64,000 nt of DNA from an uncultured Patescibacteria group bacterium (GTDB lineage Bacteria; Patescibacteriota; Gracilibacteria; BD1-5; UBA6164), in contig CAWUVK010000004.1 in the NCBI GenBank assembly GCA_963926055.1, forward strand, positions 40,934-104,933, in the 5' to 3' direction. Below, in pieces: positions 761 to 44,759 of the stretch. The notes under the pieces are model-generated. The model made no database searches and was not told the origin of the DNA. It saw only the letters and a program-made list of their open reading frames with translations. Numbering within the stretch: position 1 is the stretch's first letter; each line of letters opens with the position of its first letter. Both the position numbers and the translations under genes were made by a program.

Positions 761-806
761 TCTCTTCCTCCTATCAAAGGGGGAAGTACCCGAAGGGGGA
801 TGGGGG
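761..806. repeat. GC-rich palindromic island (intergenic copy)
   Basis: The sequence TCTCTTCCTCCTATCAAAGGGGGAAGTACCCGAAGGGGGATGGGGG is a CT-rich arm pairing with a G-rich arm, followed by extra G runs. It stands out from the AT-rich flanks. It resembles the islands at 39514-39552 and 44245-44276. Confidence 0.6.
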
Positions 807-816
807 TATTAAAAAA

Positions 817-2466
817 ATGAAACAAAAAATAAGTATAAAGAAAAATATTATTAAGTATGATAGTGAATCGTTGAATCATGAAATAGAAGAAATTTTAATG
901 AAAAGATTTGATGATCCTCTAGAATTACAAAGAACGATGGCAGATTTACATGATCCATTTGGTTTAAAAGATATGGATAAAGCTGTAGAAAGAATTTTAC
1001 AAGCGAAGCAAGATGATGAAAAAGTAATGATCTTTTGAGATTATGATGTAGATGGAGTGACGAGTACTTCTATTTTGATGCATTTTTTCAAAAAAATTGG
1101 AATAAAAGCAAGTTATAGATTACCACATAGAGTAAAGGATTGATATGGTTTAAAAGACTATTTTGTTGATGAATGCAAAGAATTGGGAGTAACATTAATA
1201 ATTACCGTTGATTGTGGGACTCGTGATATTGATGTGATTAAACATGCAAAAAAATTATGAATAGATATTATTGTGACTGATCACCACGCGGTTCCTGATG
1301 AGATTCCAGAAGAAGCAGTTGCAATTGTAAATCCGAAAAGACCAGATTGTGATTATCCATTTAAAGGTTTAGCTGGAGCTGGAGTTGCATTTAAGGTCAT
1401 GTGCGCGGTTGCAAGTGAGGTATTAGAATTTGAGGAATATGAAGATTATATCAGAGAATCTATAGATATTTGTGCTATCGGAACAGTAGCTGATTGTATG
1501 ACGCTTACAGGTGAAAATAGAGTGATAGTTGTAGAATGATTAAAACAAATCAGAAATTCTCGTAGTAGATGAATTAGAGCACTTATTGAAGATAAAATAA
1601 ATACTGATTTAGATGCAGATGTATTTGGTTTTGTAATTTGACCAAGATTAAATGCAGCATGAAGAATGGATAGTCCTTATAAGGCTGTAAATTTGATTTT
1701 AAATAATGGTGAAACTTTAGAGCAAACACTTCACGAAATAGAAAATCTCAACGAACAAAGAAAATTTCAAACAAAAATGTTTGTTGAAGAAGCATTAGAA
1801 AAAGTAAATCCGAAAGATAATTTATTGTTTTATTATTCCGCTGCAATTGAGCATGGGATAATTGGGATTGTAGCTGGAAGATTGACAGAACAATTTCATA
1901 AACCAAGTATTGTTTTAAAAGATGAATGAGATAAATTAGTAGCGAGTTGCCGTGCTCCAGAATATTTTTCTATGATTGAGGTTTTAGAAAAATACAAAGA
2001 TTATTTTATAGCTTTTTGAGGTCATAAACAAGCAGCAGGTTTTTCTATAAAGCGTGAAAAATTTTGAGAATTTAAAACTAAATTATTAGCTGAACTCAAT
2101 GCTTTGGATTTTTCAAAAAATAGAAAAGAATTGGTCGTAGACAAAGTAGTAAATTTAAATGAGCTAGGTTTTTGATTTTTATATAAAATAAATAAATTTA
2201 AACCATTCGGGATAGGGAATAGAAAACCTCTCTTAATGGTTGAAAATCTCGATTATGATTCAGTTTGAATTTTAGGAAAAAATTCACGAGACCATTTGCA
2301 ATTTAAAACTCCTCATGGATATAAAATTTATTGATTTTGATTTGGGAAGTATTTAGAAGATATTAAAAAATCTAATTGAGTAGATATTATTTTTGATATG
2401 TCTGAAGATTCATGGATGGGAAAGAAAAATTTGATGTTAAAAGTGGAAGATATTATTCTAAAATAA
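817..2466 (+). CDS. recJ: single-stranded-DNA-specific exonuclease RecJ
   Basis: Track fragments 817-1038, 1273-1539 and 1666-1929 share one frame and fuse into a 549-aa ORF when TGA is read as Gly. DHH motifs are IF-G-DYDVDGVTS (that G is the TGA at 1036-1038), TVDCGT and IIVTDHH. The DHHA1-like motif is GHKQAAGFSI. The stop is TAA at 2464-2466. Confidence 0.93.
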
Positions 2467-7302: not shown

Positions 7303-8430
7303 ATGCCAAAAGAAAAATTAATCTTAAAAGATGTCTTATTTAATCAAGAGAAAATAATATATTTAGCTCGGATTATAAAAAATGTATACTGAGAATTTCA
7401 AAGTGAAAATTTTATTCACGAGACTTTTATCAAATTTCCTCAACTAGAACTCAAACAAAGAATATTACATATTAGAGATATGTTATATAAATATTTGCCA
7501 CATGATTATGTTTCTGCTGTAAATGTTTTGGTAAAAAGTTTACCCGCAGAACTGGATTCAACGAAAAGTGATGGAGATTTTTGAGATTTTATTTTTGCTC
7601 CTTATGGAGAATTTATTTCTCAATATTGATGTGAAGAAAAATATTTAGATTTTTCATTGCAAAATTTAGAAATAATTACAAAAAGATTTTCAATGGAATT
7701 TGCGCTTCGTGATTTTCTAAAAAAATTCCCACAAGAAACGCTGAAATTTGCTCAAAAGTGGTCAAAAAATGATAATTATCATGTGAGAAGATTATCGAGT
7801 GAAGCAATTCGTCCAAATCTTCCATGGGGATGAAAAGTAGATATTTGAATCCAAAATACTTTTAAAATTTTAGATAATTTATTCCCAGATCAAAAACAAT
7901 ATGTACTTCGTAGTGTGGCAAATAATCTTAATGATATTACAAAATTAGATGCAAACGCAGTTATTTCTAAACTTTTAGAGTGGAAAAAATCTGAAAAACA
8001 AAGTCAAAAAAATATGTTATTTTTGATCACACATTCTCTCAGGAGTGAAATAAAATCATGAAATCCCAAAGCTTTAGAGTTAGTATGATATTATCAACCT
8101 GCTATAAAAATAAATGATTTTCATATTTTTCAACAGCAAGTAAATATATGAGATTCTCTAGAGTTTTGATTTGAACTAACTTCAAATATTTCTCAAAAAT
8201 TACTCATAAATTATAAAATATATTTTGTTATGTCGAATGGAAAATTACGTGAAAAAATATTTCATATTTCGAAAAAAAAGATATCAAAATGAGAAAAAAT
8301 TAAGATTACAAAAAAACATTCTCTAAAAAATATGACTACAAAAAAATTATATTCTTGAAAACATTTTGTAGAAATATTTATAAATGGTGAAAATTTTTGA
8401 AAAAAAGAATTTGAATTTACATCAACGTAG
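7303..8430 (+). CDS. DNA alkylation repair enzyme (AlkD-like HEAT-repeat family)
   Basis: 375 aa. WSKNDNYHVRRLSSEAIRP..LPWG and VLRSVANNLNDITK resemble the DNA alkylation repair protein family. The stop is TAG at 8428-8430. Confidence 0.65.
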
Positions 8431-8453
8431 GGAACGAATATTTCTGTTCTTAC
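8427..8453 (+). repeat. REP-like imperfect palindrome with a GTAG head
   Basis: GTAGGGAACGAATATTTCTGTTCTTAC. The left arm pairs imperfectly with the right arm. It shares GTAGGGAACGA with the repeat at 8862-8879 and lies 38 nt upstream of the RAYT start. Confidence 0.55.
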
Positions 8454-8490
8454 TGGAAATAATATTGATATATTATATAAAAAGGAGAAA

Positions 8491-9084
8491 ATGTACGATT
8501 GACCACAACGTAAAAAATTACGATTAAAGGATTACGATTATTCAAGTGATTGATATTATTTTATAACTATTTGTACGAAAAATAGGGAAGAATTTTTTGG
8601 TGAAATTATTGATAGAAAAATGTTTTTGAATGATTATGGAAAAATCGTCAAAAATGAAATTTTCAAAACACCTGAATTGCGTCAAGAAATAAAAATAGAT
8701 GATTTTGTAATAATGCCAAATCATTTACATTTAATAATAATTATTCAAAACAAAAATGTAGGGTGCGATTGCATCACACCGAAAGACATCGCACCGAAAG
8801 ACATCACACCGAAAGACATCGCACAGTGAAAATATATAAGACCGTGAGAAAATAACGGAACGATGCAATCGTTCCCTACGTTATCACGTGTAATTCGTTG
8901 ATTAAAATCAACGATAACTAAACAAATTCGTTATGAAATGTGAGATTTTAATTTTGGATGGCAAAAATCATTTTTTGATGTAATTATAAAAAACCAAGAC
9001 CAGTTAGATAAAACGAGGCAATATATTATTGATAATCCATGCAAGTGGGCAGAAGATAAAAATAATGTAATAAATATAAAATAA
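8491..9084 (+). CDS. REP-associated tyrosine transposase (RAYT, IS200/IS605 Y1 HUH superfamily)
   Basis: 197 aa. It has a Shine-Dalgarno AAGGAG 4 nt upstream. Motifs are YYFITICTKNRE, the HUH motif MPNHLHLII, and C-terminal FKS..TKQI plus RQYIIDNP containing the candidate catalytic Tyr. Track ORF 8620-8829 is its middle. Confidence 0.8.
8758..8879. repeat. inverted pair of GTAG-headed 18-mers inside the RAYT ORF
   Basis: GTAGGGTGCGATTGCATC (8758-8775, plus strand) and GTAGGGAACGATTGCATC (8879-8862, minus strand) match at 16 of 18 positions. The right copy also forms its own 8-bp hairpin, GGAACGAT gca ATCGTTCC. Confidence 0.7.
8775..8824 (+). repeat. tandem 15-nt repeat, 3.3 copies, in frame
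   Basis: C[A/G]CACCGAAAGACAT occurs three times plus a partial copy. It encodes ITPKD-IAPKD-ITPKD-IA within the RAYT. Confidence 0.9.
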
Positions 9085-10455: not shown

Positions 10456-10872
10456 ATGGAAAATAAACTTTCACTAGATTTTGGTTCAAATCAACCAAAG
10501 TTTCGTAGAAAAATAATGCAAAATATCATAGTCGATAGAAAATCAAAATATACTGCAGTTGCAGGTTTTGTTGAATCAAAAGAAGATGTAAAAAAATTTA
10601 TGTCAGAATTGCTTAGAGATAAATATTTTCAAAAATCTACGCACAATACCTACGCTTTTAGAATAACTTTGGAAAACGGGAGTGTATTAGAATCTAAAAA
10701 TGATGATGGTGAAACTTGAGCAGGAAACTGTGTTTTGAGAGAACTACAAAGGTCAGAATTTACAAATACATTAGTTGTGGTAACACGTTATTTTGGTTGA
10801 GTACATTTACAAGCAGATAGATTTAAAAATGTTATTGAAGTAACAAAAATTATACTAGACGAAATAAAATAA
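10456..10872 (+). CDS. IMPACT/YigZ-family protein (UPF0029 domain)
   Basis: KSKYTAVAG...STHNTYAFR...DDGETGAGN...VVVTRYFGGVHL. The start may instead be the internal Met at MQNII. Confidence 0.75.
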
Positions 10873-10940
10873 TTATTTGCAAAATATAATTAATTTTATA
10901 ACATTTAGTTACTATAAATTTTATAGTTTATTAAAAATAT

Positions 10941-11528
10941 ATGAAAAAAATATTAATTATTACTGCAAATCCTAGCTCTCAAGGATTTACACATCAAATA
11001 GCCGAAAAATATTCTCAAGTATCAAAAAACCTAAATGCTCAAGTGGAAATATTAGATTTATATAAATCAGAGAATATACAAGAATATTTACAATATGAGA
11101 ATATTAGAACAGATTGGCCAAAAGATGAAAAAATAAAATCTATGCAAGAAAAAATTACAAATGCAGATGAACTTGTATTTGTAGCTCCGGTTTGGTGGGG
11201 AAGTGTTCCTGCTGTGATGAAAAATTTCATTGATGTAAATTTCCAAGCTGGATTTGCATATAAGTATGGAAAAAATGGGAAAGTAGAAAAATTATTAACA
11301 TGAAAAAAAGCTACTTTATTTATGACTTGCGATGCACCAGGATTTATTTATAAATATTTACCATTTATGATTTCTCTCAAATGATATTTTGGAACGAATA
11401 TTTTAGGATTCTGTGGAATAAAATTAACAAAATTTCATTTATTTGATCATATGCATAAACATAAAAAATCTCAAGAATGAATCGATACATTATTAAATAT
11501 AGTCGAAAAATTAGCAAAAAAGTCATAA
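10941..11528 (+). CDS. flavodoxin-fold NAD(P)H-dependent oxidoreductase
   Basis: 195 aa. MKKILIITANPS...ADELVFVAPVWWGSVPAVMKNFID is typical of FMN-dependent NAD(P)H quinone or azo reductases. Confidence 0.75.
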
Positions 11529-11590
11529 TATTATGGCTTTTTTTATTTCAAAAAATTTGTATACTATTAAAAATATTAAAAAAATAATTT

Positions 11591-12106
11591 ATGGATATAA
11601 ATATTCAACGTTCAAATAGAAAAACAATTTCCTTGCAGGTGAGAAAGCAGCAAGTTATAGTGAAGGCTCCAATTTTTTTATGAAAAAAATATATTGTTCA
11701 ATTCGTAGAGAAAAATAAAGCATGGATCGAAAATAAATTAAAAAATCACCAAAAATCCCTCATTCAGCCAGAGAAGATTGATGAGTATAAACAACAAGCG
11801 AAAATATTTATACCTAAAAGAGTAGCTGAAATCGCTAAAAAATTTGGTTTTGAGTATAAATCTGTTAAAATAACATCAGCAAAATCAAGATGGTGAAGTT
11901 GTACAAGTCAGAAAAATTTAAATTTTTCATTTCGACTTATTTTAACTCCACCTGAAATTATTGATTATGTGATTTGCCATGAATTGGCACATTTAAAACA
12001 CATGAATCATTCTAGACAATTTTGGTGAGAAGTGTCTAGAATGGATAAAAATTATAAACAACACGACTTTTGGTTAAAGAAAAATTGAGATTTATTTATA
12101 TGTTAA
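11591..12106 (+). CDS. YgjP-like metal-dependent hydrolase (DUF45/M48 superfamily)
   Basis: 171 aa. Motifs are SRWGSCTS.KNLNFSFRLI and the zinc motif YVICHELAHLKHMNHS. Confidence 0.8.
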
Positions 12107-12169
12107 TGTATCTGTAATTTTCATTTTTTCATTTATCAGTTAGAATAATATATATTTATATTTTAATTA

Positions 12170-37511: not shown

Positions 37512-39848
37512 ATGCAAGATTTACAAAAAATATTACAAGAAAAATTTGGTTTAGAAGATTTTAGAGAATGACAAAGAGAAGTTATTGAAAGTGTTGTTTG
37601 AGGAAATGATACGATTGTTTTTATGCCAACATGAGGATGAAAATCTTTGACGTACCAACTTCCAGGAATTGCAAAAAAATGAGTTGCTGTGATAATTTCA
37701 CCACTTATTTCGTTGATGAAAGATCAAGTAGATAAACTCAATGAACTAGGCTTAAGAGCTGAATTAATAAATTCTACGATTTCGTATCACGAACAACAAA
37801 TGATTCTCAATGAATTATCAGCAACATCTTGAGACGAAGAAAATCCAATCAAATTTTTATATGTTGCTCCAGAACGTCTTAATTCTGGAGATTTTTCTCG
37901 TGTATTACAAAAAACTCCTATCAGTTTAATCGCCATTGATGAAGCGCATTGTATTTCTCAATGGGGGCATGATTTTCGTCCGAGTTATATGAAAATAAAA
38001 GGATTTATTCAAAACCTCAGAAGTGTTAATCATTTTCCAGTTATAGCTTTAACGGCAACGGCTACAAAAAAGGTAAGAGCTGATATAGTCGGAAGAATCT
38101 GACTTGAAAATTATAATACGTTTACAAAATGATTCGATAGAAAAAATATTATTACTATTGTACGTGAACTTTCGAAAAAAGAAGAAAAAATGCAAAAAGT
38201 TTATGAAATAGTTCAAAATACACCAGGAAGTGGAATTATATATTGTTCGAGTAGAAAAGTAACCAAAGAAATTTATGAATTTCTTTCTCAAAATGATATT
38301 TCTGTTGGGATTTATACCGGTGAAATGTCAGCTGATCAAAGAGAATCAATGCAACAAAATTTCATGGATTCAAAATTAAAAGTTATCGTGGCAACGAATG
38401 CATTTGGTATGTGAATCGATAAAAAAGATATTCGTTTTGTGGTGCATTATAATCTTCCTGGAAGTATTGAAAATTATTATCAAGAAGTCGGGAGGGCTGG
38501 TCGTGACGGGAAAAAATCATTTGGTGTGGTTATTGCGAGTTATGGAGATACAAAAATTCAAGAATTTTTTATTGAAAATTCGCATCCACCAAAAGAAGAA
38601 ATTCTTCAGCTGTATGATTATCTTTATAAAAATGCGAAAGTCTGAGAATGAAAAAATACTCAAATCCAAGAAACATATATGCAAATGGCAAATAATTCTG
38701 GGATAAATAATGATTTAAAAGTCGGAACGATTATTAAAACGCTGGAAAAATATGGAATTCTTCAAAGAGGTATTTCTGGTGAATTAGACGAATCATTTCG
38801 TGGGAGATGAGTAACCTTAATTCAAGAAAAAAGAAAACCAGAACATATCATGGTAGATTGGAAACACCAAAATTTACTCAAAGAAGAAGCCTATTTCAAA
38901 CTCGAAAAAATTAAAAAATTACTTTTTTATCCAAGTTGTAGAAAACGTTTTATTCTCGAATATTTTGGAGACGAAGAAGACCTTAAAACACTTTCTGATA
39001 ATTGTGGATTGTGTGATTATTGTCTAGAAAAATCTAAATTACAATCAGGAAAAATGGAAAATCTCGTAGCTCTTTCAGTTTTTGAAATTGTACTTGATGT
39101 GGTTTCAAAATTTGATAAAAAATATTGAGCGAAACTCATGGTAAAATTTTTACGGGGTAGTGCTGACGCGAGAATGTCAGAGTGGGGAATGGATAAACAT
39201 GAAATGTATGGAGTGTTAAGTGAATATACGCCAGATCTCGTTGAAGGATTAATAGAATGATTGATTCAACATGATTATTTAGAAAAAACCACAGGACAAT
39301 ATCCACTTTTAGGACTGACTAAAGTTGGTTTTGCTGCACTAAAAAGAGAAGATATTCTCAAAGAAGATGAACCAAATCTTCAAGAATACCTTCATATGAA
39401 AGTAAAAAATGGAGCATTTAAAAAAGCAAAAACAAACACTTCAAAAACTCCAGGAGTTAAAAAACCAAAATGAGCAACGTACAAAGAAACTCTTGCTTTG
39501 ATGGAAAAATATACCCTCACCCCTAACCCCTCTCCCTTGGGGGAGAAGGGAACTGATTTCCAAGATGTTATTAGTTTTGTTTCAGACCAAAGATGATTAG
39601 GAAAAACAACTATTGAATCACATATAGTGACGCTTTATGAATCTGGAGATTTGAGTTTAAATACGGTTTTAAAATTTACAGAATTTTCAAATTTGAAAAT
39701 AATTAAAACTATTATTTCACAAAATTTTACTGGAAGTGTCGAAGCACTCAGACCAGTGAAAGATTTACTCGAAGAAAATGGTCACAAAGATATTCCATAT
39801 TTTGATATCAAACTCGCAGTGAGTATGATGCAAAAATGAGATTTATAA
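37512..39848 (+). CDS. recQ: ATP-dependent DNA helicase RecQ
   Basis: Six track fragments in one frame fuse to 778 aa. Walker A is MPTGGGKSL, with TGA at 37632-37634 and 37638-37640. Other motifs are [45 protein letters not shown] and the Zn-binding CRKR...CGLCDYC. The C-terminal about 100 aa is not an obvious HRDC domain. Confidence 0.93.
39514..39552. repeat. GC-rich palindromic island inserted in frame in recQ
   Basis: CCCTCACCCCTAACCCCTCTCCCTTGGGGGAGAAGGGAA. The hairpin is CCC-C-TCTCCC / GGGAGA-A-GGG (39528-39550). The opposite strand reads GGGAGAGGGGTTAGGGGTGAGGG. The island encodes [12 protein letters not shown]. Confidence 0.7.
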
Positions 39849-43990: not shown

Positions 43991-44006
43991 TTTTCATCTT
44001 TTTTTA
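43971..44006. terminator. bidirectional rho-independent terminator
   Basis: The stem AAGATGAAAAT (43977-43987) pairs with ATTTTCATCTT (43990-44000) and has A and T runs. Confidence 0.7.
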
Positions 44007-44759
44007 TAATTTTAAATTTTTCACATCATCTTTTGCATCATTGGTCATGTAATTTGTCTTACAATTCGGACAATTGAAATAATATTTGTAATAAAATTTT
44101 TTCAAAAGAGTTTTTTTTGTATGTTTTGGTATTTTTTTTACCACAGGAGTTAAGCATTTTTTACACGGATCTCCATCTTTTTCTACTTTTAAACTCGGGT
44201 CTCACTTTCAAATTACTTTCATAATTTCTTGAGTTTTATTTTGTTCCTCTCCTGATAAGGGGATGCTAGGAGGGGTTTTAGAATAATAATTATTCATATA
44301 AAATTCATCCACGAGTAAATCATCCATTTTCATTGCTTGAGTTGCGAGTTCATCACATCTTTCATTTTCGATATGTCCGTTGTGTCATTTTACCCAAGTA
44401 AATCCAACTTCATGTTTTTCTACTTCTAGGAGTAATTTTTCCCATAAATCATAATTAACTGCTTTATCTGACTTGGTTCTCATCCAATTATTTGCTTTCC
44501 ATTTTTTTGCCCATCATTTTTGGATTCCGTTTATTGTATATTGAGAATCTGTATAGACTTGTACTTTTGCTTTTTTTGTGAGTTTTGATAATCCTGTGAT
44601 AACTCAGAGTAATTCCATTCTATTATTTGTTGTGCAAGTGAACCCTTGTAAAAACTCTTTTTTTACTCAACCACAACTCAAAATAACTCCATATCATCCT
44701 GGCCCAGGATTTGGATTTGCTCAGCCATCAGAGTACAGCTCTACATTTGGTATTTGCAT
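44004..44759 (-). CDS. rnhA: ribonuclease HI with a C-terminal Zn-ribbon extension
   Basis: 251 aa. RNase H motifs are ELYSDGGANPNPGPGGYG, TNNRMEL, VYTDSQY and WVKGHNGHIENERCDELA. A GC-rich island follows. The tail then carries CKKC...CPNC. Confidence 0.88.
44245..44276. repeat. GC-rich island inserted in frame in rnhA
   Basis: The plus strand reads TCCTCTCCTGATAAGGGGATGCTAGGAGGGGT. The gene strand encodes TPPSIPLSGEE between the RNase H domain and the Zn-ribbon tail. Confidence 0.6.

Follow-up and report, generated by a model that had tools for sequence, protein, structure and literature searches.

By its sequence, the island in the recQ gene of this CPR bacterium belongs to the BoxC / PIT / TMECO "intrastrand triplex motif" family, of which it is a solo copy. 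It entered the gene recently and in frame, within an inter-domain linker. Inverted pairs of BoxC-type repeats bracket DUF559 domains in Gracilibacteria, Proteobacteria and Bacteroidota, and in this association the repeat-nuclease-repeat cassette is carried in frame by conserved housekeeping genes, with polymorphism at fixed sites. To our knowledge, no function, origin or spreading mechanism has been assigned to BoxC/PIT/TMECO repeats in the roughly thirty years that they have been known, and we know of no role for DUF559 (E. coli YcjD; PDB 3HRL). The link between the two gives each a concrete partner and makes DUF559 a candidate spreading enzyme.

The recQ island as a recent in-frame insertion

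The window, the whole 64,000-nucleotide stretch that was analysed, belongs to a 1.32-Mb genome of 12 contigs with 26% GC and 94% completeness. TGA is a sense codon in this genome (long-ORF coverage rises from 5% to 98% when TGA is read through), and under code 25 recQ is a single ORF of 778 aa (Table 1). The island codes for aa 668-681, in the linker between RQC and HTH_40; this Pfam placement agrees with an earlier sequence-only reading, which had put the island at the junction of the helicase/Zn/winged-helix core and the C-terminal domain. The same reading had quoted 39 bases at 39514-39552, a position that proved exact, and had described a hairpin of 9 paired positions with one mismatch together with an antisense G-quadruplex motif. 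Both features were recovered: the plus strand forms 9 pairs with a single C.A mismatch and the minus strand 10 pairs including one G.T, and the minus strand carries four G-runs with 3-nt loops. The energy of the hairpin was not unusual when compared with shuffled sequences (z -0.8 and -1.4), and we therefore dropped folding energy as evidence; the significance of the island derives from its family membership and not from its hairpin. A search of the whole window against Rfam at the gathering threshold returned two tRNAs only, and thus no described RNA family spans the islands.

Table 1. Coordinates of the repeats and of the genes discussed, numbered along the window
Feature	Coordinates	Strand	Remarks
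recQ	37512..39848	+	Pfam order DEAD, Helicase_C, RecQ_Zn_bind, RQC (aa 527-621), linker with insert, HTH_40 (690-769)
Solo triplex-motif (BoxC/PIT/TM-type) repeat in recQ	39514..39550	- (G-rich strand)	
recQ repeat, complement of mirror purine block G2	39514-39523	+ coordinates	
recQ repeat, loop between G2 and G1 complements	39524-39526	+ coordinates	
recQ repeat, complement of purine block G1	39527-39536	+ coordinates	
recQ repeat, loop between G1 complement and stem complement	39537-39540	+ coordinates	
recQ repeat, complement of pyrimidine stem	39541-39550	+ coordinates	
39-nt (13-codon) stretch missing from RecQ orthologues	39510..39548	+	From the alignment
Second family member, in RNase HI	44244..44271	+ (G-rich strand)	In frame as PPSIPLSGEE, C-terminal extension
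RNase HI CDS	44004-44759	-	Identity by Pfam
Intergenic three-block repeat, other sequence sub-family	764..800	+	17 nt upstream of recJ
recJ	817-2466		Identity agrees with Pfam
IS200-like Y1_Tnp (RAYT-like) gene	8491-9084		Preceded by a GTAG-headed palindrome; both within 8427-9084

When RecQ orthologues from 11 related genomes were aligned, 11/11 lacked the island, including those of two congeners at 92% identity. This alignment was the check that the sequence-only reading had named for its claim that the 12-13 residues are an insertion, and the claim holds. The insert is exactly 13 codons (39 nt) long and is placed after an A-run, and the ~30 nt that follow it are unusually diverged from the congeners. 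None of the best 30 RecQ matches in a collection of 5.8 billion proteins carried the insert, and no donor RecQ allele was found among them. Contigs that span the insert were found for the source run, for another sample of the same study and for a relative at 95% identity from a lake-water study, and in those metagenomes the repeat-only matches with 1-3 differences sit in other flanks. Elsewhere in the genome there is no near-identical copy of the recQ repeat, the closest copies being those in other metagenomes, and the 94%-complete genome holds no cognate DUF559 for the sequence sub-family of the recQ copy. The insert is translated as a Pro/Gly-rich spacer.

The repeat family and its identity with BoxC, PIT and TMECO

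An nhmmer search recovered 20 family members in the genome, and a structural detector that imposes three-block geometry only, with no sequence, found 17 sites, including the island upstream of recJ, versus 0 in the block-shuffled genome. The repeat unit measures 35-40 nt. Its three-block design, made up of a pyrimidine stem, a purine block that pairs with it in Watson-Crick fashion and a second purine block in mirror repeat, is kept in 20/20 copies. The mirror block co-varies with its partner, with a fit of 0.88 versus 0.58 +/- 0.03 when G2 was permuted among copies, a level reached by 0/2000 permutations. Stem mismatch types by strand (T.G 20 vs C.A 10) were found to be inflated by flank positions and were not used for choosing the functional strand.

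Approximately 13 of the 20 copies, or about two thirds, lie inside long ORFs and are translated, which is the outcome of the genome-wide family search, mapped against ORFs, that the sequence-only reading had recommended. By Pfam the intragenic copies reside in RecQ, RecG (two copies), RNase HI, an RNase HII-QueH fusion, QueA, Tex, an NAD-epimerase (two copies), an RHS protein and DUF7897. Orientation and frame are strongly biased: the C-rich strand is the sense strand in 11/13 intragenic solo copies, all read in one frame and yielding Pro/Gly-rich peptides of the form TPPS.PPL[ST]GEGS. Owing to TGA=Gly, every frame of the G-rich strand is open in this genome. The hosts are rich in nucleic-acid-structure enzymes (RecQ, RecG, RNase HI, RNase HII, Tex and QueA, on contigs C1, C3, C4 and C11), in what are small numbers. 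On contig C11, one ORF at 10778-12115 (L141:579-1916) fuses RNase HII to the epoxyqueuosine reductase QueH; the repeat interrupts its QueH part, and another repeat lies 11 nt upstream of its start.

Two related islands had been proposed from the sequence, in rnhA and upstream of recJ. The rnhA island is a member of the family, and the recJ island has the same design in a different sequence; the closest relatives of the latter flank a free-standing DUF559 gene on contig C7 (68304-68651). The copies in Tex, in epimerase site 2 and in QueA are private to this genome and missing in congeners at 84-94% identity. Polymorphism, with a variant copy in some of the congeners, was seen at the RNase HI site and at epimerase site 1; for RNase HI, the repeat is common to G001, present as a variant copy in G002 and missing from G003 and G004. 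Six pairs of filled and empty sites showed no target-site duplication, and the 10-30 nt adjoining the inserts there are unusually diverged. An A-run, GAAAAA, precedes the insert at 4-5 of the 6 sites, a recurrence that is weak evidence because the genome has 26% GC.

In the recQ copy the blocks are 10 nt long, with 9 Watson-Crick pairs plus one G.T and 10/10 mirror triads, and each block of the antisense strand, like its TTA second loop, has a counterpart in E. coli TMECO type A. In Table 1 of PMC4666352, type A has the same blocks, GGGAGAGGG(G) / TTA / (G)GGGTGAGGG. The exact published pattern, CCCTCNCCC N3-6 GGGNGAGGG N3 GGGNGAGGG, was matched by 0/20 copies, and by 2 when up to 3 substitutions were allowed, because the blocks here are 8-10 nt, the second loop is 1-3 nt and the G-run lengths are slightly different. 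With a 24-base composite pattern derived from the family, >120 loci in many phyla were found among the matches listed from a species-genome collection, including loci in Pseudomonas, Xanthomonas, Enterobacter, Nostoc, Dehalococcoidia, Planctomycetes, Bifidobacterium and Omnitrophica. At three loci of other phyla (L054, L066 and L125) the repeats are two-sided: a mirror block flanks the hairpin at either end, which makes the whole unit a perfect palindrome. Such a palindrome would be expected to remain if an inverted pair underwent deletion between its direct-repeat parts.

Earlier work on BoxC/PIT elements was reportedly carried out by Bachellier in the 1990s and by Hoyne and Maher in 2000 and 2002. 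BoxC, the PIT element and TMECO are one and the same, comprising a C-rich stem, a pairing purine block and a second purine block in mirror symmetry (Holder 2015, PMC4666352). As single-stranded DNA the E. coli motif forms a purine-motif triplex in vitro by CD and NMR, the latter excluding a G4, and when its complement is present it forms a duplex only, with no in vivo footprint (PMC4666352). According to Holder et al., the E. coli motif is always intergenic, with no link to mobile elements, no transposase nearby and local instability (PMC4666352). By analogy, the G-rich strand of the repeats described here may be able to fold as a hairpin or as an intrastrand purine-motif triplex.

DUF559 nuclease cassettes and their turnover in RecG

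In RecG, a DUF559 domain (aa 346-448) lies inside the DEAD domain, between two inverted repeat copies (aa 317-329 and aa 450-461). This insert is one of three DUF559 matches in the genome; the second, on contig C10, is a decayed copy with a repeat on either side, and the third is the free-standing gene on contig C7, which is flanked by its own repeat sub-family, shared with the island upstream of recJ. In the cassette inserts Pfam detected DUF559 and a weak MTES_1575 match only, and no Hint or other splicing domain around the nuclease as would be expected of an intein, so that the insert apparently stays in the protein. The closest solved structure to DUF559 is PDB 3HRL, an uncharacterised "endonuclease-like protein". 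When the cassette was considered as a MITE, it was found to have inverted ends, with no duplication and with diverged flanks at the six filled/empty pairs.

The association of repeat and nuclease extends well beyond this genome. Among the matches listed for loci chosen by the repeat pattern alone, 6/6 DUF559 copies lie within 170 nt of a repeat, two of them in frame, in the MetRS of a beta-proteobacterium and the LeuRS of a member of the Cytophagales. In E. coli K-12, TMECO no. 9 lies 168 nt downstream of ycjD (DUF559), a proximity whose chance is ~0.002 by our own arithmetic (23 copies in 4.6 Mb). In 30 relatives, a three-block repeat was present within 400 nt at 24/30 DUF559 loci and two or more were present at 20/30, usually as an inverted pair 4-140 nt away, versus a background of ~1.4% per interval of that size in this genome. 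Five genomes of other phyla contributed 15 DUF559 copies not used for ascertainment, of which 5 have repeats, and at the same loci the repeat density was 1.26 per kb near DUF559 versus 0 in 47 kb elsewhere. The block sequences vary by cassette lineage, and the three-block geometry is kept. In-frame hosts of DUF559 in the relatives comprise RecG, RecQ (G008), RarA/MgsA, LeuRS, TsaD, a MiaB-like enzyme, two radical-SAM proteins and an SDR. A literature search found no paper linking DUF559 or ycjD with BoxC/PIT, and the sequence-only reading, which had recognised the family, the insertion and the related islands, had missed both the BoxC identity and the DUF559 cassette.

Two loci stood out for their arrangement. 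At L182 (G011:C3:74025-77339), a LeuRS contains two in-frame inserts, a NUDIX domain at aa 258-378 and, at aa 501-605, a DUF559 flanked by repeats, and at L176 (G006:C21:18291-21599) a DUF559 gene sits within an array of 12 triplex-type repeats, several of them ~55 nt apart, in a BIME-like manner.

We compared the RecG site at one codon position among 14 genomes. The full cassette was present in G000, G002, G007, G010, G012, G013 and G017, a two-repeat remnant without the nuclease was present in G008, and the site was empty in G001, G004, G005, G006, G009 and G018. On the host tree, G007 (full) and G009 (empty) are sisters with 100/100 support, and within the genus the branching order is (G004 empty,(G000 full,(G002 full, G001 empty))). 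Synonymous differences between G000 and G002 amounted to 7/131 in the cassette versus 137/623 in the host gene (Fisher p = 2e-6), falling to 0-3% over ~90 codons. Since host synonymous sites give equal distances for all three species pairs (0.22-0.24), this low divergence indicates that the cassette is younger than the species split. The omega of DUF559, 0.17-0.33, indicates that the nuclease is under purifying selection. Site-specific presence and absence together with horizontal spread, by which a homing element is judged, are found at RecG in the site states, the host tree and dS; plain recombination could also have carried the cassette, given the other low-dS windows in RecG.

How the repeats may spread, and comparison with known systems

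We are evenly divided on whether the nuclease drives repeat spread, with solo copies as its non-autonomous derivatives. On such a mechanism the cassette would be a homing-type selfish element whose putative nuclease would cut in or close to either the folded repeat or the empty target; the ensuing repair would then copy the element into the cut site. Solo repeats such as that in recQ would have moved in trans or been copied in the same repair, standing to the nuclease as REPs do to RAYTs. Several observations speak against this mechanism: the solo copies exceed the cassettes in number, only 5/15 unselected DUF559 loci of other phyla have repeats, no target-site duplication was found, the sub-family of the recQ copy lacks a cognate DUF559 and the copy itself a near-identical partner in the genome, the other low-dS windows in RecG would allow ordinary recombination to have moved the cassette, and Holder et al. 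saw neither an in vivo triplex nor a tie to mobile elements in E. coli.

In the main rival account, which we consider less likely, host replication and repair acting on the non-B structure of the repeats (fork stalling, template switching, error-prone repair) would generate or spread them, and DUF559 would be a passenger or use repeat pairs as safe landing sites. Such an origin is consistent with solo copies being far more numerous than cassettes, with insertions that have diverged flanks and no target duplication, with a recQ sub-family that has no cognate DUF559 in the genome, and with the published tie of the motif to local instability with no transposase nearby (Holder et al., PMC4666352). 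It nevertheless leaves unexplained the tight (4-140 nt), symmetric bracketing of the nuclease in three phyla, the co-variation of block sequences with cassette lineage and the repeated hits at one RecG codon position.

It is improbable that the recQ island is the leftover of a full repeat-DUF559-repeat cassette that decayed at that spot. Two-repeat remnants devoid of a nuclease do exist, at the G008 RecG site and on contig C10, but the congener sites in recQ are empty and the insert is exactly one 39-nt unit; moreover, the only RecQ cassettes seen (G008 plus two database proteins, among the matches listed) lie between DEAD and Helicase_C.

More doubtful still is the suggestion that the island is kept for recQ function, as a regulatory G4 or hairpin or as an adaptive Pro/Gly linker, for which one could cite the canonical G4 motif on the antisense strand and the position of the insert in a linker with the ORF intact. 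Close relatives do without the island, the unit also occurs in unrelated genes and spacers, and the mRNA has the C-rich strand. Canonical G4 motifs (four runs of >=3 G with 1-7-nt loops) are kept in 6/20 family copies only, with no other such motifs in the genome, which rules out the G4 as a conserved feature. Together the two mirror purine blocks account for the four G-runs, and with three blocks in 20/20 copies and a canonical G4 in 6/20 the G4 is a by-product of mirror G-blocks; the G4 potential of the recQ island is probably incidental.

Scarcely tenable is the notion that the island is a Rickettsia palindromic element, or that it serves as REP to the window's RAYT-like gene. The sequence-only reading had likened the island to the Rickettsia elements, and the in-frame copies inside ORFs do bear out that likeness, but it fails on size (38 nt versus ~150 bp; review PMC10969869) and on the distribution across many bacterial phyla. 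For the REP partnership one could point to the Y1_Tnp gene itself, but its flank is a GTAG-headed palindrome and not BoxC-type repeats, which carry no GTAG head here, and no triplex-type repeat lies beside it. The Y1_Tnp gene and its palindrome form a separate repeat/enzyme system.

Returning to the nuclease-driven mechanism, we tentatively entertain, with somewhat less than even confidence, a broader reading in which repeat-DUF559-repeat is a new class of homing element that invades conserved coding sequence without splicing. The repeats would serve both as nuclease-recognised ends and as translated Pro/Gly linkers that let the host protein tolerate an extra domain, and the BoxC/PIT/TMECO elements found everywhere, including in E. 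coli, would be non-autonomous offspring with YcjD as their enzyme. The genus supplies dated events, with solo copies private to one species and a RecG site that is full, decayed or empty and whose cassette postdates the host gene. Translated selfish DNA is thus tolerated in essential enzymes (RecQ, RecG, RNase H, aminoacyl-tRNA synthetases and TsaD), a tolerance that is relevant to CPR protein annotation and to the interpretation of "insertions" in CPR alignments.

Compared with BoxC/PIT/TMECO as described, the repeats have the same three-block architecture, near-same block sequences, a multi-copy, dispersed occurrence as singlets and inverted doublets, and unstable surroundings. In E. coli, however, these elements are reported to be intergenic throughout and to have no mobility gene, whereas here about two thirds are translated in genes and repeats bracket DUF559; the insertions here are also datable against congeners, in a host that is a 26% GC, TGA=Gly CPR bacterium. 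Rickettsia palindromic elements are likewise palindromic repeats inserted in frame into unrelated genes and translated, but by description they are set apart, being ~150 bp, Rickettsia-restricted and devoid of a third block or nuclease, in contrast to the 36-40 nt of the unit described here.

Homing endonuclease genes resemble the cassettes in their site-specific presence and absence in housekeeping genes, their cycle of full, decayed and empty sites, a cassette younger than the host gene and a Vsr-like nuclease fold, for which the EDxHD homing endonuclease family of I-Bth0305I provides a precedent (PMC3239194). The cassettes differ in that there is no intein or intron and repeat-encoded Pro/Gly linkers flank the insert. 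REP/REPIN elements and their RAYTs share with the present system short, structured, dispersed repeats in singlets and inverted doublets, a single-domain nuclease gene between an inverted pair, and a repeat sequence that co-varies with the enzyme lineage. Here, in contrast, the enzyme is a PD-(D/E)XK Vsr-like protein where RAYTs are HUH Y1 transposases, a third, mirror block is present in the repeats and a GTAG head is absent, and the cassettes lie inside coding sequences.
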